Shown: positions 16,639 through 58,875, counted from the stretch's first letter. The stretch: DNA of 64,000 nucleotides from Candidatus Poribacteria bacterium (GCA_965205015.1 OZ242029.1:2784001-2848000); one strand, 5' to 3'. The notes: generated from the sequence alone by a model not told the origin. Numbers and translations: made by a program.

Positions 16639-16726
16639 GGTGGGATGGCTGAGTGGACGAAAGCGGCGGTCTTGAAAACCGTTATGGCGCAAGCCATCGT
16701 GGGTTCGAATCCTACTCCCACCGCCA
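16639..16726 (+). tRNA. tRNA-Ser(TGA)
   Basis: Acceptor GGTGGGA/TCCCACC, anticodon loop CTTGAAA, long variable arm, GTTCGAATC, encoded CCA. Confidence 0.95.
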
Positions 16727-16730
16727 TTAT

Positions 16731-18197
16731 CTAAACTTCCGAGACGAAAACCCAATGCTTTAGTTTTGGGATACAGTCTCGCCCTCTTGGAAAGGACCAA
16801 AGCGTTCATTTTTTGCTTGACATTTGGTCCGAAAGTGTGGTATAATGAGAATATCAAGTTGGACCGACATATACAGCATAACCGCAAGGTTACGTGTCGG
16901 TCCCACCCACTTTGCGGGGGTTAAAGACTTGAGACTTGAAAGTCCATGCGAAACACGACCCATAAACTTTTCAAGGATAAGACGTTGCGTCACTTGCACG
17001 ACGATTGCAATATCTGTGGCGTTGTGAAAAATCATTTTTTGGCACTCTGTATGCGATATTACCGCCGCTATGGGAAAGGACTTTCGTATGCGAAACTGTC
17101 GAAACATTTGACGAAACTGAAGAAACTTGAGAAGTATCAGCATTGGAATATCCCTTACTCTTGGGCGTTGCAAAATGTGCTAAAACGGTTAGCACAAACT
17201 TTTCGTGAAATGAAAACATTGGGCAGAGGTCACCCGAAGTTCAAGTCGTGTAAGAAACACAAAGGGATGACGTTTCGGGGTGAACAGGTCAAACTTGAAA
17301 AAGTGTTGGATAAGCAGAAGAACCAAAGAAATCACCCGACCTATAAAATCCGACTGAATGGACGTTGGTATCGCTTCGCCCTGCATCGTGAAATCGAGGG
17401 ACACATCATCGAAGTTCATGTAACACGAGATGCGCTCGGAGATATGTATATTACGCTGACAGAAGACTATACCGAAATCAAGATCGAACCCAAGACGGGT
17501 AAAGCTGAAGGGTTTGATATGGGTATTACGGACTTTCTGATTGGTAGTGATGGTCATAGATATACGTCTCCGATGTTCTACAAACAGAACGCTGAAAAGT
17601 TAGCGAAAGCACAAAAGGCGTATTCCCGCAAGGTCAAAGGGTCTAACAACCAAGAGAGGGAACGCAAGACCGTTGCGCGTATCCACAAGAAAACGGCGAA
17701 CCAACGGACAGATCACCATTGGAAACTGGCGATAGAACTGTGTCGTAAGTTTGATATACTGTTCTTTGAAGACCTGAACCTTTCGGGTATGAAACGCTTG
17801 TGGGGGAAACAGGTCTCCGATCTTGCGTTTGGTGAGTTCCTGCGGAAACTCAAGCACCAGTCTCATAAGCGTATTCGCTCCGTGCTGAAAATCAATCGGT
17901 GGTCTCCGACGACAAAAGTCTGTTGTGTTTGTGGACATAAAAATCAAAACCTCACGTTAGCAGATCGTTCTTGGAGGTGTCCGAGTTGCGATACGCACCT
18001 TGACCGAGACGAGAACGCTGCGATGAATATTCTTAAGGAAGGGATAGCTTCCTTTGGCTTAGGGGTTGTAAGTCCTATTGTTTTGTTTGACAAGATCGTA
18101 GGCTGCTCCGTTGAATCCAACCATCCGATTCTGAAATCCACAAATGCTTCTGCATAACGATTGCAGAAGCCCAAGTCTTTAGACTTGGGTCTATCAC
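16731..18197 (+). mobile_element. IS200/IS605-family TnpB-only (IS1341-type) element; boundaries approximate
   Basis: Subterminal hairpins cccaatgc-ttta-gttttggg (left) and cccaagtc-ttta-gacttggg (right); starts after TTAT and ends in TCAC; internal TTGACA-N18-TATAAT at 16817-16846. Confidence 0.75.
16946..18157 (+). CDS. tnpB: RNA-guided endonuclease TnpB
   Basis: RuvC motifs GFDMG, FFEDL, DRDENAA; Zn finger CCVC...CPSC. Confidence 0.93.
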   Translation: MRNTTHKLFKDKTLRHLHDDCNICGVVKNHFLALCMRYYRRYGKGLSYAKLSKHLTKLKKLEKYQHWNIPYSWALQNVLKRLAQTFREMKTLGRGHPKFKSCKKHKGMTFRGEQVKLEKVLDKQKNQRNHPTYKIRLNGRWYRFALHREIEGHIIEVHVTRDALGDMYITLTEDYTEIKIEPKTGKAEGFDMGITDFLIGSDGHRYTSPMFYKQNAEKLAKAQKAYSRKVKGSNNQERERKTVARIHKKTANQRTDHHWKLAIELCRKFDILFFEDLNLSGMKRLWGKQVSDLAFGEFLRKLKHQSHKRIRSVLKINRWSPTTKVCCVCGHKNQNLTLADRSWRCPSCDTHLDRDENAAMNILKEGIASFGLGVVSPIVLFDKIVGCSVESNHPILKSTNASA

Positions 18198-18214
18198 AGT
18201 ATAGGGATAAAAAG

Positions 18215-18305
18215 GGTTGGAATGGGCGAACTCGGCGGTCTTGTCATTTGATAAAGGGCGTTATGGCGTAAGCCATCGTGGGTTTGAATCCTACTTCCAC
18301 CGCCA
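18215..18305 (+). pseudogene. Degenerate copy of tRNA-Ser(TGA)
   Basis: 18259-18305 matches the last 47 nt of 16639-16726 with 3 mismatches; cggcggtcttg retained, anticodon loop replaced by a longer sequence. Confidence 0.7.
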
Positions 18306-18308
18306 TAG

Positions 18309-18393
18309 GGAGAGGTGCAGGAGTGGTTGAACTGGACTGCCTGCTAAGCAGTTATGGCGTAAGCCATCGTGGGTTCGAATCCCACCCTCTCCG
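18309..18393 (+). tRNA. tRNA-Ser(GCT)
   Basis: GGAGAGG/CCTCTCC acceptor, loop CTGCTAA, long variable arm. Confidence 0.95.
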
Positions 18394-18401
18394 TTCACTA
18401 C

Positions 18402-18475
18402 GCGCCTGTAGCTCAGTGGATTAGAGCATCTGACTACGGATCAGAAGGCCAGGGGTTCGAATCCTCTCAGGCGCT
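18402..18475 (+). tRNA. tRNA-Arg(ACG)
   Basis: GCGCCTG/CAGGCGC acceptor, loop CTACGGA. Confidence 0.95.
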
Positions 18476-18497
18476 TCAAGGGACCTTCGCTGAAAAT

Positions 18498-18953
18498 TTG
18501 GATACCGATTTATTCTGGATGGAACACGCTCTCAAATTAGCGCAACAGGCAGGCGAAAAGGGAGAAGTACCTGTTGGGGCGCTGCTTGTTAAGAGCGGTG
18601 TTCTGATCGCTGAGGCATTTAACTTACGCGAGACACGCGGCAGTCCTATTGCCCACGCGGAAATGCTTGTCCTACAAGCCGCATCTGAAAAAATTGGTAA
18701 CTGGCGATTTGTTGATACGACGCTCTATGTGACATTGGAACCTTGTCCGATGTGTGCTGGCGCGATTGTTTTGGCGCGCGTTCCAAGAGTTGTTTACGCA
18801 ACAACAGACCCGAAATCAGGGGCAGCCGGAACGCTTTATAATATCCTTCAAGATGCGCGACTGAATCATCGGGTTGAATTGGTAAGCGGGGTATTAGCGG
18901 AAGAAAGCAGTGCCTTGCTGAAGTCCTTTTTTCAGCAGCGCCGCCAGAAATAG
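18498..18953 (+). CDS. tadA: tRNA adenosine(34) deaminase
   Basis: GEVPVGA, AHAE, TLEPCPMC; start placed at TTG 18498 because the ORF-track start lies inside the tRNAs. Confidence 0.93.
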   Translation: MDTDLFWMEHALKLAQQAGEKGEVPVGALLVKSGVLIAEAFNLRETRGSPIAHAEMLVLQAASEKIGNWRFVDTTLYVTLEPCPMCAGAIVLARVPRVVYATTDPKSGAAGTLYNILQDARLNHRVELVSGVLAEESSALLKSFFQQRRQK

Positions 18954-18979
18954 CAATTATAGAAATAAGTGGGCATCTT

Positions 18980-19006
18980 GTAGGGGCGGGTCTCGTGCCT
19001 GCTTAC
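18980..19006. repeat. GTAG-type REP palindrome
   Basis: gtaggggcgggtctcgtgcctgcttac; relatives at 19498-19524, 25889-25914, 31112-31138, 39850-39876 and 4555-4577. Confidence 0.7.
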
Positions 19007-19022
19007 TACTGATACCCAATAA

Positions 19023-19107
19023 GGAGAGATGCAGGAGTGGTTGAACTGGACAGTCTCGAAAACTGTTGTGGCGCAAGTCACCGTGGGTTCGAATCCCACT
19101 CTCTCCG
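19023..19107 (+). tRNA. tRNA-Ser(CGA)
   Basis: GGAGAGA/TCTCTCC acceptor, loop CTCGAAA, long variable arm. Confidence 0.95.
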
Positions 19108-19215
19108 TTTTTCATCTTTTTCGGCGTCGAGTTGTAAAGCGTAAGCGGCTCAAGCATCGTAGCGGTTGCGTGTTGTGTGAATTCCGCAAGTTGCTCTTTA
19201 ACTAACAACCATTAC

Positions 19216-19288
19216 GGGGCAGTAGCTCAGTTGGGAGAGTGCATCCCTCGCACGGATGAGGTCACGGGTTCAAATCCCGTCTGCTCCA
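19216..19288 (+). tRNA. tRNA-Ala(CGC)
   Basis: GGGGCAG/CTGCTCC acceptor with G3:U70; loop CTCGCAC. Confidence 0.93.
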
Positions 19289-19387
19289 TATGAAACTTCG
19301 ACCTGAGAATTAGGTCGAAATTTATTTTTAAACCAGATTGCCCATCTCAGACGCGCGCGGCGTCATGAGATGTCCTAAAAATTTTAC

Positions 19388-19479
19388 GGAGAGATGCAGG
19401 AGTTGGTTGAACTGGCATGACTGGAAATCATGTGTGCTGTTTTGCAGTACCGTGGGTTCGAATCCCACTCTCTCCGCCA
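19388..19479 (+). tRNA. tRNA-Ser(GGA)
   Basis: Loop CTGGAAA, long variable arm, encoded CCA. Confidence 0.95.
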
Positions 19480-19544
19480 CTTTTGACGCAATTTGCTGTA
19501 GAGGCGAGGTCACCTCGCCCCTACTGTTGAAATAATTAACGCCT

Positions 19545-19815
19545 TGGCTATGCTAGGTGGGGAGGTAGCGGTGCCCTGTATCTGCAATCCGCTAAAGCAG
19601 AACTGAATCCCCGGTATGCGGCCTGTTTTTGTGGGGACTGTCCCACGCACGTGGTGTTGAGGGTTGGGTCTTGAGCAACGGGCGCTTATTGAACCCCGTC
19701 AGGTCCGGAAGGAAGCAGCGGTAGATGAGTTGCTCGTGTGACGCAAGGGTGCCTGACCTGAGCTAACGACGCGGGCAACGCTTGGAGAAGCTTGTCAACC
19801 CTGGGTGCATAGTCA
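19545..19815 (+). ncRNA. ffs: Large bacterial SRP RNA (Alu-domain type)
   Basis: GGGGAGGTAGCGGTGCCCTGTA..TGCAATCCGC 5' domain; helix 8 TCAGGTCCGGAAGGAAGCAGC; ends pair (tggctatgc/gcatagtca); lies upstream of dnaX. Confidence 0.93.
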
Positions 19816-47520: not shown

Positions 47521-48852
47521 TTATCTCAATGTAGCGTCTATAGAGATTCTCGCGAGGAAAGAATTGACTTTCCCTTCTCCACTGAACGAATTACCGGTGG
47601 CACCTAACTTAAAGCGCGTGCCTTCATCAAAACGGTGCGTGATCCTTCCGCCCTTACCGGGTACAATCCCTGATGCTGCGGTGAGTATAACCTGAGGCAT
47701 GCCGTCTGTTGAGAATTCGCTGTCGCTTGCAAACAGGATGAACGCACCGGCAGCCTCGGCACTCCCCATCCAGAGATCAATCGTGAGCATACCACCATCT
47801 TTAAACGCCGTCGCATCAATCTCAACAACGGTGTAATCTTGAGTGCCTGCTGTCGGTGTTCGGAAAATATTCAAGATATCCTGTGAAGGTTCTTCATCGT
47901 TGAGCACGACGCTTTTTGCCTGTGTGGAAAGAAACCTCGGTGTGTATTCCGATTGATCTGCCTTCGGTGCAAATCCATCACCCTTACGCGGGGTCATAGA
48001 TTTACCAACTTGTGTCCGCACATTCGGTTTTGATGCAAGATCCAGGACAATAGGAGTGTCAATAAGTTCCACCGTCATCTCCGATGGGGCGGCAAAATCG
48101 TAGGGCTGTTGGAAACGTGTTAAGTACTGACTGCTTGCTCCAAATGCCATTAAAACGAGGACGAGGGTTGAGGTAGCGAGTGCCCACGGCACGAACGGCT
48201 TACCACTGGGGGGTGTGGTGGGTTGGATGCGGGAAATCTCTTGCATGATTTTCTCGGTGAGATTCGCCCGAATCTGAAAGCCTTCCAGTGCTTCTCGGAT
48301 CATCGGTTCTGCCTTCTTTAAGCGGAGTCGCGCACGACGAAGCCGACTCTTAACAGTGCTCGCCGATACCCCCAAAAAACGGCTGATCTCTTCACACGTC
48401 ATCTCTCCAAAATAGTGGAGTGTGACGACGGTGCGTTCACTTTCCTGCAACCGGGCGAGCAATCTTTGGACGATGCCGCGCTGCGCCTCTACCGCAGCTT
48501 TTTCCTGCTCCTCGGCAATGTATTGGGAATACGTCACTCCTTCTATTAGTTCGATGTCCGTATCTTCCAACGATTGCGTCGGCATCCGTTTTTTTCTCAG
48601 CCACGCTTGGCATTGACGTGCGGCGATTCTATAAAGCCATCCTGCAAAGCGACTCGGATCCTTCAACGTTTCCAGTTTCTTGTAGACTCGCAGAAAAGTG
48701 TCCTGTGTAATCTCTTCCGCGACGTGGAAATCGCCAACTTTCCGCCATGCGAGCGCGTGGACTGGCTTTTGGTATTTTTTCACCAACTTCGCAAAGGCGT
48801 TTTCATCGCCTGTGAGACTGCGTTGAATTAGTTCTACATCGTCGTTCTTCAT
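47521..48852 (-). CDS. ECF sigma factor with TM helix and C-terminal domain shared with the SelN-like proteins (443 aa)
   Basis: Paralog of the 41938-44880 N-terminus; C-terminus SQDILNIFRTP...DYTVVEID.TAF..GG...FKLGATG...NSFLARIS. Confidence 0.9.
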   Translation of the reverse strand: MKNDDVELIQRSLTGDENAFAKLVKKYQKPVHALAWRKVGDFHVAEEITQDTFLRVYKKLETLKDPSRFAGWLYRIAARQCQAWLRKKRMPTQSLEDTDIELIEGVTYSQYIAEEQEKAAVEAQRGIVQRLLARLQESERTVVTLHYFGEMTCEEISRFLGVSASTVKSRLRRARLRLKKAEPMIREALEGFQIRANLTEKIMQEISRIQPTTPPSGKPFVPWALATSTLVLVLMAFGASSQYLTRFQQPYDFAAPSEMTVELIDTPIVLDLASKPNVRTQVGKSMTPRKGDGFAPKADQSEYTPRFLSTQAKSVVLNDEEPSQDILNIFRTPTAGTQDYTVVEIDATAFKDGGMLTIDLWMGSAEAAGAFILFASDSEFSTDGMPQVILTAASGIVPGKGGRITHRFDEGTRFKLGATGNSFSGEGKVNSFLARISIDATLR

Positions 48853-48960
48853 CTGTCCCCTCCAAAGAACTAAATTTGGAGAACCTTCAAGAATGATAAC
48901 GAGGCTGACAGGTTGGACGAAAATCCGTGGACATCCATCCAACCTGCTTATATCTTTGAA

Positions 48961-50946
48961 TCACTGGGCATCATAAATGAACCAGTTACCTTCCACTTTT
49001 CGCATCTTAACAGATACCTCCGAGGGATCTGCCATTGGCACTCTCAACCTGAAGTGGAATTCATCACCCACATACTCGCTGCCTAAGATCTCCATCTGAC
49101 GCAATATTTGACGCATCCGAGTACGCACATCCTCTGGCGCATCCTCAAAATCAACTTCAAATGTATGTCGGGCATCCCCTATAAGCATCGGATGTATTGT
49201 CTCTGCATCAAGGTTCTTAAATGCTTCCACGAAAGCGTTCATCACATCTTCCGCGGATTGATTTAAGTGCGCTGATGACACTTCTTTCCCATCCAATGCC
49301 TGATTCGGTTCAACAGAGATTTTCGCCACGAAGGCATTGACCTGCCCTTTCTTACTATGCCAATCACCGGTCGCCCCTAATTTAAAGTGATGCCCCCGGT
49401 CGAAAGGATAGATGATTTTCTTGGATTTACCCGGTGAGACTCCCCATGCCGAAGCAACCGCGTTCCGAGGTGCACCTTCTGTTGGGGGTTCGCTTTCGCC
49501 ATCAAACAGGTGGAACGAACCTGCAGCCTCTGCATGTCCGACGGAGATATTGATCGTAAGCACACCTCCATTTTCAAACGCCGTGGTATCAATTTTAATG
49601 ATAGTGTAATCTTGATAACCCGGTTCTGGTGTCCGAAAGATATTAAGGATCTCCTGTGAGGTTCGAACATCATTGAGTACAACCTTCAAACGACTCAATG
49701 CGGTATCCGAGTTGAGGGGCTCTGGTTCTGAAGTATCTTCACCGAATCCGGGAAGTTTTCCGTCTAAAGCTTCCTTGAGAAACGTTAGGTAACGTTGCCC
49801 CATGTTTGCTCCGAGAAGATCATTGACGGGCTGCCTGCCCATCAATTCAAGATCTGTTGAAAGAATCAAGGAATCTGACGGCGAACGCTTCTTCCACCCT
49901 TTCATGATTGCCTGTGCCAAAGGGGACTTTTTGTCGAATGGCTTGAATCCATGCTGGTGTCTCAATGCCATGAAAACTTTCTTATTAGCGGTGCGCTCCA
50001 ATTCGACATTCGACACCCAGGTATTGATAAAATTGTCATTCAAGAACTCAATGACTCGGTTGTTGGAGAGGACAACTGCCCTCAGGGCTTTACCGCTCCC
50101 TCAGCACGATTCATCCATCAATGGTCCATCTATAGAGATAGCGTGAATCGGCTTCTGTTGTGCGTGTGCCATCTCCAATACCTCATCTGGCGGCACCCAA
50201 TTAATTTGCTGTGATTTGTAGAAATTCGTTATCAGGGCACGTTCAGCGGTTTCTTGGGTAATCGCTTCTGCGAATTCGACGTTCTTCAGTAAATCTGGCC
50301 TTCCGGCACGAAGTTCCATTTGCGAACAGAAACCTGCATCTGTAATAGAGCTTCCGGGTCCGTATTTACTCCAGTTAACATCAAAGTTTACTGTGCCTTC
50401 AGGGACATACATCTTAAAGAAAGCGACCTTTTTTTGAATTCGATCAATTACAAGATGACCGGTAAACAGCGATGGAGTAAACCACCCATCCTTTAGTTTA
50501 AACTCCGCGTGAATCCGAAACACGATGTCGGCAAATGTATCGTTGTAAGCGCGCAGGCATGCCCACAAACCATAGGAATCGCCCGAGTTGATATGCATCT
50601 TCAAATTCGGATTGGGATGAAGTTGCCGTAGCAATTCTAATGCCCCGGTATTTTCAATCTGCCAGAGTTCGCCGATCGAAACCGCTTTGTCTGGAAGAAA
50701 GGCGCGGAAAACCGAGGCAGGATGCTGCTTCTCTGGTTCAGCAACGCGTAGATTTGCCAATGCCTCCCAATCTACATGGAAATTGGACAAGGTACTCACG
50801 ATTGGGGCGATGAAGCCTTTGACGGACATTTCAGATGCACCATCAAGATTAAGTGTAATTTTTTTATTCTGTGTCAAGTCCTCATTAGCGTTTAATTGTC
50901 CGCTTATCACAATCAGAGTGAGAAATCCAATCATTAGGGTTTTCAT
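48961..50946 (-). CDS. Selenoprotein N-like protein, copy 1 (Sec at TGA 50101-50103; 661 aa; signal peptide; extra C-terminal domain)
   Basis: ORFs 50101-51060 and 48961-50043 are in frame across a single TGA: GPLMDESC-U-GSGKALRAVVLSNNRVIEFLNDNFINTW; FRIHAEF, NFDVNW, QMEL and YLTFLKEAL motifs as in animal SELENON. Confidence 0.88.
50068..50083 (-). promoter_or_regulatory. Candidate bacterial SECIS hairpin
   Basis: GAGGGC-AGTT-GTCCTC starting 17 nt after the UGA. Confidence 0.6.
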
Positions 50947-51144
50947 TTTTACTTCTCCTTGTAATAGAATAACATTACTACGTAAACAACGTCTATCCCA
51001 AAAGTTGTTGCTCGCGTAGATTCTCATCTTTATGGTTTGGAGCGTTGAGGTCGAGCGCACACCTTAATCCTTAAAATTATCCAAACTTTAGTAATTTTAA
51101 TAACGGCAATTTTATCTTTCAGTCGGTTTGCCACGCGCATTCCT

Positions 51145-51954
51145 TTAGAGCCCTCTTAGGAGGGATACCCACCGTTCCCATACGGCTTTAGTGGCAGTTT
51201 TCTGTGCTTCGTTGGCATCTTCTGTCATACCGCGCATCAGGAAAGCGTGACCGACCCCTTCATAGATGACGGGTTCGTAGGTGATGTTTGCGGCATCCGC
51301 CGCGGCTTTAGTGGCATCAATTGTGGCATTGATACGATTGTCGTTCTCGGCGTAGAAGCCATACACCGGTGCTGATATTTTGGGGATATCTTCCGTTGAT
51401 GGGGCAGGACCGTAAAACACAAAACTAGCGGCTATTGTGGTGGAATGAACAGCGTAACTGAACGTTTGACCACCTCCCCAGCAGAATCCGGAGACTGCAA
51501 CCTTTTCATTGGTTTCAGGTAGATTTCGGACATATTTTTCGATGGCATCCAGGTCGGATGTGACTTGGGAGGGTGGGAGTTCGCTGATAGCCCATGGTAC
51601 GTCGTCCCTTGAGTCGAAACTTTCTGTGCCGCCACCGTCAGGTCCCATGCCGGAAAGCATATCTGGACAAATTGCGACAAACCCTTCGGCAGCGAGCGTG
51701 TCTGCGACGAGTCGTATCCAATTGGTGAGTCCGCGACCCTGGTGGATGACGATGATAGCCGTTGCGGGTTCTTTCACCGTTGGATAAACGATAAACGCAT
51801 TGACGATACGCGCATCGGAGGTCGTAACTTTCACCCTTTCGCTGTGTCGCGGGGATACGTCAAGTTGAGTTTTTATACTATCAGCCTCTGCATCGGCAAT
51901 GAACAATAAACCGGTGACAATGATACCTAACATAAGCGTGTGGGCTATCTGCAT
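51145..51954 (-). CDS. Secreted dienelactone hydrolase family protein
   Basis: GFCWGG nucleophile motif, FYG, END, YEGVGHAF; signal peptide. Confidence 0.9.
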   Translation of the reverse strand: MQIAHTLMLGIIVTGLLFIADAEADSIKTQLDVSPRHSERVKVTTSDARIVNAFIVYPTVKEPATAIIVIHQGRGLTNWIRLVADTLAAEGFVAICPDMLSGMGPDGGGTESFDSRDDVPWAISELPPSQVTSDLDAIEKYVRNLPETNEKVAVSGFCWGGGQTFSYAVHSTTIAASFVFYGPAPSTEDIPKISAPVYGFYAENDNRINATIDATKAAADAANITYEPVIYEGVGHAFLMRGMTEDANEAQKTATKAVWERWVSLLRGL

Positions 51955-52208
51955 AGTTTTTTCCTTATTTTTCCTTTGTACTGTGAATAATGGACTCTAC
52001 TACCTTTTAGATATTCTTTAGGACTTACGCGATAATTTAATATCTCAGCATTAAGCCCATTCCCCGATTTATCAATAATCGTCTGATCTGTAACCTCATC
52101 AAACGTCAGGTAAAAAACGAGTCCCTCATCCAAACTCGCGTTGGCGGAAATCGTCCCCAGGAGAATAAGGGGTCCCCAAAAAGCTGCACCGATAAATCCT
52201 CGTATCAT
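51945..52208 (-). pseudogene. Truncated LamG-domain gene
   Basis: First ~57 aa match the 54208 and 56264 paralogs (LDEGLVFYLTFD...IIDKSGNGL.AEIL), then similarity stops. Confidence 0.8.
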
Positions 52209-52280
52209 GTTTTCTTTTCCTCCTATAGAGTCATTTGAGTTTTCTAAAGCTTGTCACACAAATCTCGTGTCGATATATAA

Positions 52281-52308
52281 TGACGCGGAGGATTGGAAAA
52301 ACGGTTGC
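52281..52308 (-). promoter_or_regulatory. ECF-type promoter motif GCAAC-N18-CGTCA
   Basis: Preceded by TTTTGCAGAATTA, as are the copies at 44934, 55101 and 57155. Confidence 0.65.
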
Positions 52309-52401
52309 TTAATTCTGCAAAAAATAGAGAAAATATGATACGGGAAATGGATTTGGTTTGTTCATAGACTAAATCTGAATATGAAGCGCGTTGGATCCGC
52401 G

Positions 52402-54063
52402 TTAATTTTCGTCCTGCCCTTTCGACGCAGACTCCACGGATATTGTCGCGAGAAAAGCATTGGTACCTCCCTTCTTACTGAACCCATCACCGGTAGCTCC
52501 CAACCGAAAGGATTGACCTCGCTCAAAGATATGCGTGATGCTCTCTGTTCCACCGGATGGAATACTCCACGCTGAAGCGAGGGCATTCTGAGGTACCCCC
52601 TCTGTTGGCAGTTTCCTGTTGCCAGCAAACAAATCAAACGAACCGGCAGCTTCAGCGTACCCGACGGAAACATCAATCGTAAGCACACCCCCATTTTCAA
52701 ACGCTGTCGCATCAATTTCAACGACAGTATAATCCCGAAAGCCCGCCTCTGGTGTCCGAAAAATATTCAGTACCTCCTGTGAGGTCCGAACATCGTTGAG
52801 TACAACTTTCAAGTTACTCAATACAGTATCTGAGTTGAGGGATTCTGGTTCTGAAGTATCTTCACCCAATCCTGGCTGTTTTCCCGCTAAGGATTCTTGG
52901 AGAAACGTTAAGTAATGCCTTGTTGTGTTTCCTCCAACGAGATGAAGTTTATTGGCGGGTTGCCTACCCATCACTTCAAACTGTGGCGATATGATCAAAC
53001 AATCCACTGGAGAATGTTTTTTCCAGCCTTTCATGATTGCCTGTGCTAAGGCATGGGTTGTATCAAATGTTTTGGATTCTCGCTCGCGTCTCTTCGCAAT
53101 CGGGTCTCGTAAACTCGGTACCCGTCCCAATTCGCAATTCGGCACCCATGTGTTGACGAAATTTTCGTTCAAGTATTTTATGATCTGATCGTCGGAGAGG
53201 ACAACTGCCCTCAAGGCTTTGCCACTCCCTCAGCACGATTCATCAGCAAGCGGTCCCATTATTGAGAGGACGTGAACCGGCTTCTCTTGTGCTGGTGCCA
53301 TTTTCAACGCATCTTCCAAAGAAACCCAGTTAATTTCCTGCGATTTGTAGAAACGCAATATCAGTTTACGTTCAGCCGCTTCTTGAGTGATGGATTCTAT
53401 AAACTCGGTGTCTGATACAATTTCTTGGATCTCAGCATGAAGTTCTATTTTTGGACAAAAACCGACATCTATAGTGTTAGTGCTGTTTCGTCCAACATCA
53501 AAATTCAGTATGCCTTCAGGGACGTACATCTTGAAGGCAGTAACCTTTTCCTTAATTCGATCAATAACAAGATACCCAGCGAATTGAGACGGAGTAAATC
53601 GACCATCTCTTAGGATGAATTCTGCATGGATACGGAACACAATTTCAGCAAATCTATCATTGTACGCGCGCAAAGATGCCCACAAGCCGCGAGAATCCCC
53701 TGAATTTATGCTAATATCCAGATTTGGCTTCGGATGAAGTTGTCGCAATAATTCCAGCGCACTTCCTTCCTCGATCTGCCAGAGATCCCCAACAGAAACC
53801 GCTTCGGATGGCAGAAAAGCCCGAAAAACCGAGGTAGGATACCGCTTCTCGGGTTCAGCAACCCGTAGATTCGCCAATTCATCCCACTCCACATGAAAGT
53901 TATATTGCGTGTATTCAATCGGGGCAATGACGCCTTTCACTAACACTGCAGATGTACCATCAAGGTTAAGTGTGATTTTTTTCTTCTCTGTCAAGTCTTC
54001 ATTGGCGTTTAATTGTCCATTTATCATCACCAGAATGAGAAGCCCAATCGTTAAAGTTTTCAT
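52402..54063 (-). CDS. Selenoprotein N-like protein, copy 2 (Sec at TGA 53230-53232; 553 aa; signal peptide)
   Basis: In frame across TGA: GPLADESC-U-GSGKALRAVVLSDDQIIKYLNENFVNTW; FRIHAEF, FTPSQFAG, YLTFLQESL. Confidence 0.88.
53197..53212 (-). promoter_or_regulatory. Candidate bacterial SECIS hairpin
   Basis: GAGGGC-AGTT-GTCCTC starting 17 nt after the UGA. Confidence 0.6.
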
Positions 54064-54207
54064 TTTACAAATTCCTTAAAATTAACTACGGAAAATACGA
54101 TGTCTAAGTATCCATCTTACAAGAATTCGTTGTTCGCGTAGTATTACTATCAATATACAATAACTCGGGTTATATAAAGTAAAGCATTCTCACTTGCCAG
54201 CTACTCG

Positions 54208-55029
54208 CTAAGGGGTAACCGTCCTCTTTTTGACATCCGCCCAAGTCGTTGCGACTTTATCACTTGGTGAAACAGCGAGGAAATCCCCTACCATTGCCTG
54301 TTTAATTTCCCCATCGCTGAGTGCACGTTGCCAGACAGCGGTTTCATCAATAGAGCCGTTAGCGAATGCGTACTGCAATCTATTTTTTGCGCATCCGATC
54401 CGGAGTTTCGCGTTATTACCCCCAAAGAAATTGAATGTCTTTTTTTCCGAACCTATGACTTTACCGTCTAAATAAATCTTCACGGTTTTTCCGTCGTAGC
54501 TGCCAGCAACGTGGTACCATTTTCGGACACCCATTTTGTGTGAAACTGCGAATTCATGCCGGTCGGTAATCCCGCGTTTATCTCGCGACCCTAAAAACAA
54601 TACAATCTCTGGTCCGTCACCGATATCGGAGCTACCTATACCGTAGGTTCCAGACCAACCGACACCCGAATGGCACCCTTTATCAAGCCAATGCAACATC
54701 CTTTTACCTTTCCATGTTTCTTGATAGTAGATCCATGTCATCATTGTTATTTCGTTTGTAATTTTCAGTTTCTCTTGAGAAGGGATACTGACGCAATCCT
54801 GACCATCATCTGTGATATGAATGGCATTCCCGTATTTGCCCTTCACAATTTGGGTATTCTCGTGGAGTTCTGCGTCAAGACCATTCTTGGATTTGTCAAC
54901 AATTGTCTGATCTTTAACGTTATCAAACGTCAGATAAAAAACCAATTCCTCATCAAGTCCTGCGTTGGTAGAAATTGTCATTAACAGCATGACAGCACCC
55001 GAAAAAGCTGCAATAAATAACCGCGTCAC
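54208..55029 (-). CDS. Secreted LamG/concanavalin-like domain protein
   Basis: WYHVAGSYDG..KIYLDG, GSIDE.AVW.RALS; C-terminal VSPSDKVATTWADVK. Confidence 0.9.
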   Translation of the reverse strand: MTRLFIAAFSGAVMLLMTISTNAGLDEELVFYLTFDNVKDQTIVDKSKNGLDAELHENTQIVKGKYGNAIHITDDGQDCVSIPSQEKLKITNEITMMTWIYYQETWKGKRMLHWLDKGCHSGVGWSGTYGIGSSDIGDGPEIVLFLGSRDKRGITDRHEFAVSHKMGVRKWYHVAGSYDGKTVKIYLDGKVIGSEKKTFNFFGGNNAKLRIGCAKNRLQYAFANGSIDETAVWQRALSDGEIKQAMVGDFLAVSPSDKVATTWADVKKRTVTP

Positions 55030-55100
55030 GTTTTCTTTCCTCCTGTAGCGTCTGTTAAGTTTTCCAAAATTTGTTCCATAGACATGGTTTTGATATATAA

Positions 55101-55128
55101 TGACGCGGGTAACAGGCAGAACGGTTGC
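55101..55128 (-). promoter_or_regulatory. ECF-type promoter motif GCAAC-N18-CGTCA
   Basis: Same boxes as the other copies, different spacer. Confidence 0.65.
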
Positions 55129-55198
55129 TTAATTCTGCAAAAAAAGAACAAAATGTGATACACAGCGCAGCAAACGCGCATAACACAGCAGTTTCATA

Positions 55199-56221
55199 CT
55201 ATTTCTCTTTTACTTTTCCCCATATTGTGCTGAGCAGTTGGGGTTGCGGTGAGACAGGCAACACATATACAGGGTCGAACCAATCCCCTCCAAAATTCGC
55301 CTTAAAAACCCGTCCAATATGTGTCAACTGTGTCCGAGTGTCACTGGGGATATCAAGTTTGAAAATGTGTAGACGTCCCTTAATTTTCTGTGTATAAAGG
55401 ACCTCTTCCCCATCTGGCGACAGCACTGGATATTGTGCTCTGGGCCCGGCTTCATTGAGAAGTTCTCGGAGATCCGTCCCGTCGCGGTTTACAATATAGA
55501 TTGTTTCTTTATCCAGCCATACGGGTGGGAAACGATCCCCTGGCAAAAGGCGCGGGAACGGGTTCTGATTCCAAGAAAAAGCGAGTTTGCTCCCCGTAGT
55601 CGACCAAAACGGTTGATTTTGCCAAGCCGTTGCCGTCCTCGGTAGGAGGTGTTTTTGTCTTCGTGTGTGGAGGTCAATTAGGGCAATTCGGCAGGTATCT
55701 CCAATATAAGACACATACGCTATTTTCGTCCCATCGGGTGACCACGTCGGATATCTGCCCTCCACGACACGCGCCTCTTTTTGTTCACCCAAGGTTGCAA
55801 CGTGGATATGGAACCTGACACCGTCCCAATTCAGGTGTGTGTAAGCGATCTGTTTGCCATCGGGTGACCACGTCGGAGAATCCCTATAAGATTTTCTTTT
55901 TCTTGTGAACACGGGACGGACATTGGAGCCGCTGGGATCCATCAGATATAAGTCCCGGATGCCGCCCTCGCGATCGGAAACGAAAAGAATCTGTTCACCA
56001 GTCGGGGACCAGACAGGGTTTAGGTCATTTGCGCGATGTTGCGTTAAGTTTATCTGTTCACTCCCGTCCGGATTCATCATGTAGACCTCGTAATTGCCGT
56101 CTCGTGAAGAGGTGAACAGAATTTTGGCGGTTGTGGGTGCTGTTGCGAAAACGAAGTTAACATTTACGTCCAGTATCAACACGTTCAATATAGCAAAAAC
56201 GAACAACCGTATTGTTTTCAT
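55199..56221 (-). CDS. Secreted TolB-like (PD40) beta-propeller protein
   Basis: F.S.RDGN.EVY.MN.DGS, P.WSPDG repeats; C-terminal PVSPQPQLLSTIWGKVK. Confidence 0.88.
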   Translation of the reverse strand: MKTIRLFVFAILNVLILDVNVNFVFATAPTTAKILFTSSRDGNYEVYMMNPDGSEQINLTQHRANDLNPVWSPTGEQILFVSDREGGIRDLYLMDPSGSNVRPVFTRKRKSYRDSPTWSPDGKQIAYTHLNWDGVRFHIHVATLGEQKEARVVEGRYPTWSPDGTKIAYVSYIGDTCRIALIDLHTRRQKHLLPRTATAWQNQPFWSTTGSKLAFSWNQNPFPRLLPGDRFPPVWLDKETIYIVNRDGTDLRELLNEAGPRAQYPVLSPDGEEVLYTQKIKGRLHIFKLDIPSDTRTQLTHIGRVFKANFGGDWFDPVYVLPVSPQPQLLSTIWGKVKEK

Positions 56222-56263
56222 TTTATGTGCCTTTATGAGGGATTCTGATTTTGTAGGGAGCCG

Positions 56264-57082
56264 TTAGGGAGCGACCGCTCTTCTTTTCATATCCGCCCAA
56301 GTCGTCGCGGCTTTATCGCTCGGCGAAATAGCGAGCATGTTTCCTGTCATCGCTTGTTTGATTTCATCATCACTGAGGGCGCGTTGCCACACCGCAGCTT
56401 CATCAATAGAGCCGTTCGTGAATGTAAGATGGGGTACGTCTTTTGCACATCCGATCCGAACGTCTGCTTCGTTGTCCCCAAAGAAATCGAATTTTTTCTT
56501 TTCTTTTGCTATGACTTTACCATCTACATAGATTTTCATGGTTTCGCCATCGTAACTTCCGACAACATGATGCCATTTTTTTTCGTCCATTTCATGCGGA
56601 GTTCTGAACTCCTGTCGATCCCACTTCCCTTCTATGTGTGATCCCAAAAACAAAAAGATTTCTGGTCCGTTACCGGCATCAGTACCAGCAATACCATAAC
56701 AGTGCGCCCAACCAACCGGAACAACGAAATGACAGTCTTTTTCCAGCCAATGCGCCTTCTCGTTGTTCCATGTTTCTGCAGAATAAATCCATGCCATCAT
56801 TGTTATCTCACCGATAACTTTCAATTTCTCTTGGGCAGGGATATTGACGCAATCTCCGCTTTGACCTTTAAGGCGAATTGCATCTCCATATTTACCCTTG
56901 ACAATATCAACACGCTCAAGTATTTCTGCGTCAAGACCGTTGCCAGATTCATCAATAATCGTCTGATTTTTAACGTTATCAAACGTCAGATAAAAAACGA
57001 GGTCTTCATCCAAACCCGCGTTGGCAAAGGTCACCAACAACGTAACGACACTCAAAAAAGCAGCAATAAATGCCCGTAACAT
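56264..57082 (-). CDS. Secreted LamG/concanavalin-like domain protein
   Basis: Paralog of 54208-55029; GGAGG before ATG 57082. Confidence 0.9.
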   Translation of the reverse strand: MLRAFIAAFLSVVTLLVTFANAGLDEDLVFYLTFDNVKNQTIIDESGNGLDAEILERVDIVKGKYGDAIRLKGQSGDCVNIPAQEKLKVIGEITMMAWIYSAETWNNEKAHWLEKDCHFVVPVGWAHCYGIAGTDAGNGPEIFLFLGSHIEGKWDRQEFRTPHEMDEKKWHHVVGSYDGETMKIYVDGKVIAKEKKKFDFFGDNEADVRIGCAKDVPHLTFTNGSIDEAAVWQRALSDDEIKQAMTGNMLAISPSDKAATTWADMKRRAVAP

Positions 57083-57154
57083 GTTTTCTTTTCCTCCTAT
57101 AGCGTCATTTGAATCTTCCAAAATTTGTCACACAAATCTCGTGTCGATATATAA

Positions 57155-57182
57155 TGACGCGGAGGATCGGAAAAACGGTTGC
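57155..57182 (-). promoter_or_regulatory. ECF-type promoter motif GCAAC-N18-CGTCA
   Basis: Near-identical to the 52281 copy. Confidence 0.65.
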
Positions 57183-57339
57183 CTAATTCTGCAAAAAATT
57201 AGCAAATTTAGACATGGCTGTTGATAATTAGGGGTAAGGACGATCCATTGTCTTATGAATGAATTTCGATTTTTGAGTTTGCTTTACAGAAACGTAGATA
57301 GATAGGCGCGCGTTGACAAATAGGTTAAAATGATATGGG

Positions 57340-58875
57340 TTATTTTTCAAATGGGGGGACGACAGAGACACGCGCCAAAAAAGCATTGGAAGTGCTCTTT
57401 TGGTTGTTTGCCCTTGTAGCGACCAACTTAAAATGCTGTTTGCCCTCCCTGAAGTGGTGAAAGATATGTCCTGTATTGCCGGGCAAAACGTTCCATGTCC
57501 CAGTCAGTGCTTTATCTGTCGTTTTGTTTGTCAGAATTTTCGCATCGGCATCAAACAATTCAAACGTTCCTGCTGCCGCCCCTGCTCCGACCTGTATCTC
57601 AATGTGGAGCACGCCGCGTTCAAAAGGGGTGGTATCAATCTCCACGACCGTGTAATCTGGCGTATCGGTGTCGGATGTGTTGAAAACATGCAAAATCTCC
57701 ATCAACTCCGTCCCTAAGCTGATCGGGTTTCGATCTAATTTTGAGGCGTTCCCTACACGAGCGCGTTTTCCTTCAAACGCATCCACGGAATGCTGCAGCA
57801 CCGATAGGTATGCTTGCGCGTGATTCCTGTAAGGCAGTGCCATCTCCGGTTGATGCATAATGACTTCCGCGTCGGGGGTCAGTGCCAGAATATCCACAGA
57901 GTCGGTGTAATGGTGTTTCATCTTTTGAGCGACGAGACTCACCCCTTCGCCTTCCGCGCCACCTATCAGTTCTGGCAATTCCCGGAGGAGCACCCACGTA
58001 TTGACGAACTTTTCGTTGAGCGTTTTTATGACTTCAGGATTGGAGAGCGGACCCGCCCTCAAATTTTTGCCATTCGCTCAGCACGATTCATCATCTAAAC
58101 ACCCCCAGACAAGGATGGCATGGATCGGCCGATGGGTCGCTTTTGCCTGTGCGACTGCCTCATCAATCGGCAGCCAGTTGATCTCCGCGAACTTGTAGAA
58201 CTTCAGTTCCAATGCACGATGTGCTTCTTCCGTTGTGATAGTAGCGTCCCACGTGATCTCGTTTTGGTCGGTCTCATCTATAGCGAGGAGTTCCATACGC
58301 GGCACGAAAACCATATCCGCTCCCCCAGAGGCGTTGAGGTCAACGTTCGTGTTGCGCGCCGGCAAGGCTAATGAAAACGCGCGAATCGTTCCGCTTTCTA
58401 CATTCACCACTACTTTCCCTGCAAATTGTGATGGAATAAACCTGGCTTCGGACTCCCACTCATCGTTTTTTTCTTGCCACTCCTGATGAGCAGCGGAGTT
58501 CAACGCGAATTCTGCATGAATTCGGAAAGCAATTTCTGCGTAGTCTGAGGCACGTGCCCGTAAGCAGGCAAAGGCACCTTCCTCACCGTACCCTAAATCA
58601 GCCGTTGCTCCCGGATGAAACTGACGCAGGAAGGAAACAACACTGTTCGCATCAAGTTTATAGACATCCCCTACCGTCACAGCAGATGGTGGCAGGAACG
58701 CAGTGAAAGCATCAGTCCGGTATTCCTTAACAGGTTGGTTTGGTGACAGATCGAAAAGTTCAACGTGTTCTGGCGATGCCTTGTGCATACGAAAGGTAGA
58801 ATCCGCAATCGGTTCCCAATGTGCATGCACCTGTAGACGTGTTGAACTATTTAGGACATTACAAAGGTTTATCAC
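57340..58875 (-). CDS. Selenoprotein N-like protein, copy 3 (Sec at TGA 58078-58080; 511 aa; no obvious signal peptide)
   Basis: In frame across TGA: IHAILVWGCLDDESC-U-ANGKNLRAGPLSNPEVIKTLNEKFVNTWVLLRELPEL; GGAGG before GTG 58875. Confidence 0.88.
58043..58060 (-). promoter_or_regulatory. Candidate bacterial SECIS hairpin
   Basis: GAGGGCG-GGTC-CGCTCTC starting 17 nt after the UGA. Confidence 0.65.

Follow-up and report, generated by a model that had tools for sequence, protein, structure and literature searches.

Selenoprotein N-like genes with a conserved in-frame UGA in a Candidatus Poribacteria bacterium and their association with ECF sigma factors

Loss of selenoprotein N (SelN; SELENON/SEPN1) causes myopathy in humans, animals are commonly described as having a single SelN gene, and to our knowledge the chemistry of SELENON on its substrates is poorly defined. 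The passages on SelN in Lobanov et al. 2007 present the protein as animal-specific (PMC2375036), and a 2020 analysis, in the portion dealing with this family, places it among the metazoan accretions (PMC7016017). The 2020 calcium-sensor paper returns no mention of bacteria to a term search (PMC7474598), neither SelN nor Poribacteria appears in the main text of a 2026 review of the prokaryotic selenoproteome, and the text of the BSepDB paper names neither. Full-text searches of the open literature found no description of a bacterial SelN, with the limit that supplementary tables, such as those of PMC4807772, may list such genes. The locus described here lies within a 64,000-nucleotide (nt) stretch of a Candidatus Poribacteria bacterium, a sponge symbiont; this whole stretch is referred to as the window. 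Six open reading frames (ORFs) of the window very probably represent three paralogous genes, A, B and C, all on the minus strand, in which UGA is read as selenocysteine (Sec) and which encode SelN-core proteins with a proposed redox role connected to sigma factors. An earlier note on this DNA had proposed full-length selenoproteins homologous to animal SelN, and this reading is supported by homology on both sides of the UGA, by homologs with Cys at the Sec position and by Sec machinery in five of five related genomes. The note also referred to a previous mention of a SelN-like sequence from Poribacteria, which the literature searches neither confirmed nor refuted.

Under translation table 11 the locus is composed of six ORFs in three pairs, and translation with TGA as U joins each pair into one fused frame. 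Gene A (48961..50946, minus strand) encodes a predicted SelN-like selenoprotein of 661 amino acids (aa) with Sec at residue 282, in which a signal peptide precedes the SelN core, and a beta-sandwich C-terminal domain (CTD) is followed by an additional C-terminal extension of approximately 110 aa. Its Sec codon is the TGA at 50101-50103 in the context MDESC-U-GSGKALR, and the gene itself ends at an ordinary TGA stop (48961-48963). The ATG at 50946 (MKTLMIG) is favored as the start of gene A because orthologs begin at this MK(T/I)L position; the first possible GTG, at 51060, would give a protein of 699 aa. The last approximately 146 residues of gene A (48964-49401, minus strand) contain the extension beyond the CTD and exhibit 50-75% identity in 14 related loci, and a Pfam scan of the extension provided no match. 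Gene B (52402..54063, minus strand) encodes a predicted selenoprotein of 553 aa with Sec278, featuring a signal peptide at approximately residues 1-20, the SelN core at 33-397 (52873-53967) and the CTD at approximately 419-545 (about 52429-52809), with its Sec codon at 53230-53232 in the context ADESC-U-GSGKALR. The third gene, C (57340..58875, minus strand), belongs to a second clade and encodes a predicted selenoprotein of 511 aa with Sec266 that contains the SelN core and CTD without a signal peptide; it begins at a GTG with GGAGG six nt upstream, and its Sec codon lies at 58078-58080 in the context DDESC-U-ANGKNLR. The downstream halves in the table-11 ORF list begin at TTG only (50043, 53214 and 58062), 16-58 nt from the TGA. 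The translations and the two ORF lists reproduce what the earlier note had described, namely three ORFs that stop at TGA directly after DESC with the same frame continuing beyond, the junction peptides it quoted, the TTG-only starts of the downstream halves, and the lengths and Sec positions of the three products.

The similarity to animal SelN was examined with a core profile of 13 sequences and 359 positions, which was searched against 1.84 billion representatives and matched 690 clusters (50% identity) at E <= 0.001. The animal proteins among the matches, whose names were assigned via cluster look-ups, include an "EF-hand domain-containing protein" from Nematostella (profile E 1.1e-51) and another from wombat (2.4e-50), a jellyfish protein with a gene-model identifier only (1.3e-47), hagfish "Selenoprotein N" (1.5e-42), spider "selenoprotein N" (3.9e-38), a snail "hypothetical protein" (2.7e-37) and Tasmanian devil "selenoprotein N isoform X3" (4.4e-37). 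These matches cross the Sec position, which is profile position 252, as in the alignment of profile positions 4-339 with Nematostella residues 47-442. BLASTP analysis showed 30% identity between gene C and hagfish SelN over 290 residues across the Sec site (E 2e-35), and 28% identity between gene B and the Nematostella protein over 309 residues (E 2e-28). The similarity is significant on both sides of the TGA by both methods (profile 1e-37 to 1e-51), and the motifs shared with SelN, a feature already pointed out in the earlier note, include FRIHAEF, P(S/A)QF.G, NVD and P(R/Q)MEL. The Cys-Sec pair of the window proteins, ESC-U-G in A and B and ESC-U-A in C, aligns to DDQSC[gap]SGRTLR of the hagfish protein. 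Animal database entries omit the U letter, and the animal motif is taken here as SCUG, the form given in a SelN review (PMC12839072). Two bacterial forms with Cys at the Sec position are nearest to the chordate "Selenoprotein N" cluster in the protein Atlas (0.93 and 0.92), a placement that, taken as a lead, agrees with the sequence searches. No model in NCBIfam or Pfam recognizes the read-through proteins or the core profile.

The bacterial proteins and animal SELENON have in common a two-domain core, composed of a beta-rich N-domain and a thioredoxin fold, with 28-30% identity over approximately 300 aa and the Cys-Sec pair at the same aligned place. By inspection, the N-termini of A and B are short signal peptides of the cleavable type (MKTL..GQLNA/NE), and gene C has no hydrophobic N-terminus; several paralogs in other loci also lack a signal peptide. 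From these N-termini the products of A and B are probably exported and that of C is probably cytoplasmic; A, B and the sigma-fused forms described below would then reside in a compartment topologically equivalent to the lumen of the endoplasmic reticulum (ER), as animal SelN does. Unlike animal SelN, the bacterial proteins have neither an EF-hand nor a type II membrane anchor. A Pfam scan at E <= 0.1 identified no EF-hand and just two weak unrelated matches, the matches on animal proteins begin past the EF-hand region (Nematostella residue 47, jellyfish residue 171), and inspection of the N-termini of A, B and C found no type II anchor. The proteins are therefore classified as bacterial SelN-core homologs and not as animal-type calcium-sensing SelN, so that the claim of SelN homology stands for the shared N-domain and thioredoxin-fold domain and does not extend to the EF-hand and membrane anchor. 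Further differences from the animal protein are the signal peptide of some bacterial forms, the added beta-sandwich CTD, the extension in gene A, fusions to extracytoplasmic function (ECF) sigma factors, and the 8-12 profile matches found in each of three bacterial genomes. Bacterial Sec insertion would in addition use an in-frame hairpin, whereas animal SelN has a Sec insertion sequence (SECIS) in the 3'-untranslated region.

The in-frame UGA is conserved throughout the family. A motif scan of the window and 48 related loci (L001-L048), in which the Sec site was allowed to be a stop or any of Cys, Ser, Thr, Ala and Gly, identified TGA at 59 of 59 homologous sites, and for this reason the read-through pattern is not attributed to chance. 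Within the phylum of the related genome G001, a match was found in 116 of 150 sampled genomes, and an in-frame TGA is present in all of the 150 matches listed. Some matches in this search were scored as having two TGAs; the second is the ordinary stop in the two loci checked, and the candidate second Sec codon was rejected. The core profile produced 8, 10 and 12 matches in three related genomes; all 27 that extend over at least 300 of its 359 positions contain exactly one TGA, and the other three are short fragments. Codon-position substitution is alike on both sides of the TGA in six ortholog pairs, with an excess at third positions (for example, 0.117/0.042/0.294 at positions 1/2/3 before the TGA and 0.106/0.078/0.318 after it).

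Eight database homologs contain Cys at the Sec position (P0007, P0126, P0128, P0135, P0129, P0134, P0150 and P0256), which answers positively the suggestion that TGA/Cys swaps be sought there; the other residues encountered are Trp in P0124 and Cys-Ala in P0167. Most public entries are cut at the UGA: five of seven retrieved homologs terminate exactly at ESC, and in approximately 111 of the best 150 clusters, counted by hand, the best matching stretch stops at profile position 251. Since public annotation cuts at the UGA, surveys of the Poribacteria selenoproteome probably undercount it by several genes per genome. Five members of the family have unusual architectures (P0187, P0255, P0162, P0124 and P0006). 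Two of these contain a long coiled-coil insert in the N-domain and lack the thioredoxin part, another, 1101 aa in length, has a large unrelated N-terminal region and terminates at the Sec position, a fourth carries Trp at this site together with an altered motif, and in the fifth the active-site region is absent.

Each of the three genes contains a putative SECIS hairpin downstream of the UGA. In gene A it is located at 50068..50083 (minus strand) with the sequence GAGGGC-AGUU-GUCCUC, starting 20 nt past the U of UGA, and the hairpin of gene B (53197..53212, minus strand) has the same sequence. The hairpin of gene C (58043..58060, minus strand) has a 7-bp stem, GAGGGCG-GGUC-CGCUCUC, with the 3' arm displaced by 2 nt from its position in A and B. 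A hairpin in one of these two registers, 20 nt after the U of UGA, is possible in 51 of 51 distinct sequences, with full pairing in all 43 of the A/B type (GAGGGC-AGUU/AGGU-GUCCUC) and all 8 of the C type. Synonymous codon choice within the element is constrained: the Arg codon of the stem is AGR in 51 of 51 genes as against 25% elsewhere in the same genes, the stem Leu codon is CTY in 51 of 51 (35% elsewhere), and the Val/Gly codon of the loop is NNT in 51 of 51 (34% elsewhere). This constraint extends across paralogs with approximately 36-38% protein identity. Compensatory changes are few, with G-C replaced by A-U in three cells and C-G by U-A in one. The only DNA repeat common to all three paralogs is a 104-nt stretch around the UGA (family D7). 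Bacterial SECIS elements are generally modeled by their distance from the UGA and by a G and a U in the loop, and the hairpin described here fits both; from its sequence and position it is a probable bacterial SECIS. Folding energy from RNAfold, taken alone, does not single out the hairpin and was rejected as an identifier of it.

The machinery for Sec insertion was identified in five related Poribacteria genomes (G001-G005), which carry orthologs of gene C with 73-85% identity. The complete set of selA, selB, selD and tRNA-Sec, a search for which had been suggested in the earlier note, is present above curated cut-offs in five of five of these relatives, and tRNA-Sec is located about 40-440 nt from selB in each. 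The presence of these genes is the general pattern of SelB-dependent recoding, observed here in relatives of the window genome. The selD gene contains one in-frame TGA in all five, which indicates that SelD is itself a selenoprotein. No tRNA-Sec was found within the 64-kb window. On this evidence each of the three genes would be translated through its one UGA as Sec into a single protein, with recoding carried out by SelB and tRNA-Sec and guided by the 6-7 bp in-frame hairpin 20 nt downstream.

AlphaFold2 prediction of the gene C core (mean predicted local distance difference test, pLDDT, 80; predicted template modeling score, pTM, 0.78) gave a beta-rich N-domain followed by a thioredoxin fold at residues 221-367. 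These residues match DsbD-gamma-like, DsbH and AGR3 chains with Z of 10-13.8 (Foldseek E 3e-4 to 1e-2). In the model, Cys260 and Sec261 are positioned between a strand (246-251) and a helix (263-269), in the loop leading from the first strand of the thioredoxin fold to its first helix. The Sec would thus be placed next to Cys (S/A-C-U-G/A) where thioredoxin folds usually have their redox center, and the predicted chemistry is a Cys-Sec selenenylsulfide/selenol-thiol couple that would reduce or sense oxidized substrates. Among solved structures, the folds closest to the core's C-terminal half are DsbH/DsbD-gamma/Thioredox_DsbH (DUF255), AGR2/3 and ERp19, with root-mean-square deviations of 2.4-3.4 A over 106-126 residues and 10-21% identity, and the Pfam family PF03190 matches the read-through proteins weakly (E 0.036). 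The resemblance is confined to the thioredoxin domain, and these proteins, unlike the window genes, lack the N-domain and the Cys-Sec dyad. Searches of PDB sequences with the read-through proteins and the profile found no solved structure related by sequence. The full-length model of gene B (pLDDT 77.5) features a C-terminal beta-sandwich at about residues 419-545. A Foldseek search with this model provided only generic beta-sandwich or jelly-roll matches for the CTD (collagen-binding domain, CBM6, PliG) with low TM-scores, and no family name was assigned to it.

Other described systems resemble parts of this arrangement. Bacterial thioredoxin-fold selenoproteins likewise have a UGA in the redox-active loop, Cys homologs, and a 3' hairpin with G and U in the apical loop; in the window proteins, however, the Sec directly adjoins the Cys (CU) instead of forming CxxU or UxxC. 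An adjacent Cys-Sec dyad is found in the GCUG center of mammalian thioredoxin reductase, and the parallel between SCUG and GCUG has already been drawn in the SelN review (PMC12839072). The dyad of thioredoxin reductase is carried on the flexible C-terminal tail of a flavoenzyme, whereas here it lies inside a thioredoxin fold, and there is no homology between the two. The bacterial SelN homologs that are soluble, natural Cys forms included, could be expressed and crystallized, and no structure of a SelN homolog has been solved.

The gene downstream of gene A connects the family to sigma factors. This ORF (47521..48942, minus strand) is located 18 nt downstream of gene A and encodes an ECF sigma factor followed by a transmembrane segment and a SelN-type CTD (about 47533-47910). 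Pfam analysis identified PF04542 (1.6e-15), PF08281 (1.9e-15) and PF07638 (1.4e-7), all above cut-offs, and the product contains the regions 2 and 4 of an ECF-type sigma-70 factor. The CTD of the sigma ORF is 57% identical to its counterpart in gene B over 126 aa (E 1e-41). The same adjacency, with the sigma gene behind SelN-like genes, recurs in 19 of 50 loci (40 of the 50 are SelN loci, and many have short flanks). Direct fusions are also found, with Sigma70/ECF Pfam domains in 13 of the 120 homolog clusters listed, where an ECF sigma factor and then a membrane helix precede the SelN core. P0007 is a sigma-fused Cys form, as is P0129, whose composition is rich in Ala, Arg and Gly and suggests that it comes from a different organism with a high guanine-cytosine content. 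The same arrangement of Sigma70 r2/r4/ECF, one hydrophobic helix and an outside domain is shared by ECF sigma factors fused to transmembrane and extracytoplasmic domains; the present forms differ in having the SelN core or its CTD as the outside domain. With this order of fusion, the core would lie outside the cytoplasm and occupy the place of a sensor domain. Because the core is fused behind a sigma factor and a membrane helix, and because a sigma-TM-CTD gene follows gene A, we infer that the SelN-like family may act in extracytoplasmic redox sensing or repair and feed an ECF sigma response. No description of a sigma-linked SelN-core or CTD sensor was found in the literature, and the recurrent fusion offers a functional hypothesis that can be tested. 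Two findings extend the first reading of this DNA: the large size of the family, and its recurrent fusion or adjacency to ECF sigma factors tethered to the membrane. Sequence comparison confirms the finding as real and richer than first described: bacteria contain a predicted Sec-containing family of SelN-like proteins, with an expansion in Poribacteria and a link to ECF sigma factors.

Two other explanations of the six ORFs concern the decoding of the TGA. The TGAs may be real stops, with each locus producing two polypeptides, the C-terminal half being reinitiated at TTG, or consisting of decaying pseudogenes. A TTG does lie in frame 16-58 nt from the TGA in every downstream half, so that reinitiation is possible, and public annotation splits the halves, with most of the retrieved homologs ending at ESC as noted above. 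Set against this, the codon is TGA at every one of the 59 sites and never TAA or TAG, Cys homologs and animal SelN exist as single chains across the site, purifying selection is equal on both sides, and the chain would be interrupted within the active-site loop of its thioredoxin fold; together these points make real stops extremely improbable. It is also very improbable that the UGA is read as Trp, Cys or Gly, or that TGA is reassigned, so as to give full-length proteins without selenium. Homolog P0124, with its Trp at this position, favors such a decoding. TGA nevertheless terminates five other long ORFs of the window, the end of gene A among them, and table-11 coding coverage is 82%, for which reasons a global reassignment was rejected; the Sec machinery of the five relatives, with its Sec-containing SelD, the conserved hairpin at SECIS distance, the Cys in homologs and the SCUG of the animal motif (again from PMC12839072) likewise argue for Sec at this codon.

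Several observations weigh against reading the three genes as selenoproteins with a sigma-linked redox role. The TTG starts of the downstream halves, at which reinitiation might occur, are one of these. The hairpin has unremarkable RNAfold z-scores of -0.3 to -1.0 in the 60 nt after each UGA, its covariation is sparse and coincides with the most conserved protein segment, and a search of Rfam found no family matching the element. The synonymous-site counts at the hairpin are not independent, as the sequences are related. The evidence for Sec machinery comes from the five relatives and not from the genome of the window itself. For the sigma link, the evidence consists of fusion and gene order only, and the neighboring genes (a dienelactone hydrolase, two LamG genes and a PD40 propeller) give no redox clue. 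A single extracytoplasmic role does not fit all copies, because gene C and several paralogs have no signal peptide.

A further question is whether the genes were recently captured from the sponge host, that is, from animal to bacterium, and do not represent an old bacterial family. Such a capture would accord with the sponge habitat reported for Poribacteria and with the portrayal of SelN as animal-specific in the SelN passages of PMC2375036. A maximum-likelihood tree of 26 core sequences, seven of them animal, was constructed; it is unrooted and contains no sponge SelN. The seven animal sequences group together (100/100) as a single clade with a long stem, with the point of attachment among bacterial lineages lacking resolution, and they are not nested beside Poribacteria with support. 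Genes A and B fall within one poribacterial clade (100/99) and gene C within another (95/88), the latter together with a sigma-fused Cys form. The poribacterial sequences thus form two deep clades, which are interleaved with Cys forms from other bacteria. A homolog search with the Cys form P0135 returned 12 matches in which Poribacteria is the only organism named, and Atlas clusters for the Cys forms point, as a lead, to Planctomycetota at scores of 0.87-0.89. The tree, which had been suggested in the earlier note as a check on horizontal transfer, provides no support for a recent event from the sponge host, within the limit of being unrooted and without sponge SelN. The breadth of the family (690 clusters at E <= 0.001, with approximately 111 of the best 150 stopping at the Sec position) and its bacterial features, namely the in-frame hairpin, the signal peptides and the sigma fusions, further make recent capture from a sponge unlikely.

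A tentative scenario for the origin of the family, offered as one possibility, is that the SelN core was an old bacterial module for sensing or repairing extracytoplasmic oxidative damage, wired to membrane-tethered ECF sigma factors; animals would have acquired it once and added the EF-hand and ER anchor, and Poribacteria would have kept many Sec paralogs. If true, this would be one of the larger expansions of a single selenoprotein family in a bacterium, and the chemistry, partners and structure of SELENON could be approached through the bacterial proteins as a tractable model. A deep and diverse bacterial family with Sec at the same position would in any case alter the view of SelN as animal-only. 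At locus L050 (437-5220, genome G136), three SelN-like selenoprotein genes are arranged head to tail, none with a signal peptide; two of the genes are one base apart and two overlap by about 30 nt. This tandem arrangement points to tandem amplification of the SelN-like family.

Two further features of the window were observed outside the SelN-like genes. A 140-nt element is present three times (52186-52325, 55006-55145 and 57060-57199) with 66-91% identity; its copies lie just upstream of the two LamG genes and a short ORF (51945-52208), which looks like a third, truncated LamG copy. From its placement this repeat may be a shared leader or promoter. Elsewhere in the window, the region 16639-19812 on the plus strand contains six tRNA genes (four tRNA-Ser, one tRNA-Arg and one tRNA-Ala), followed by a large signal recognition particle (SRP) RNA at 19548-19812.

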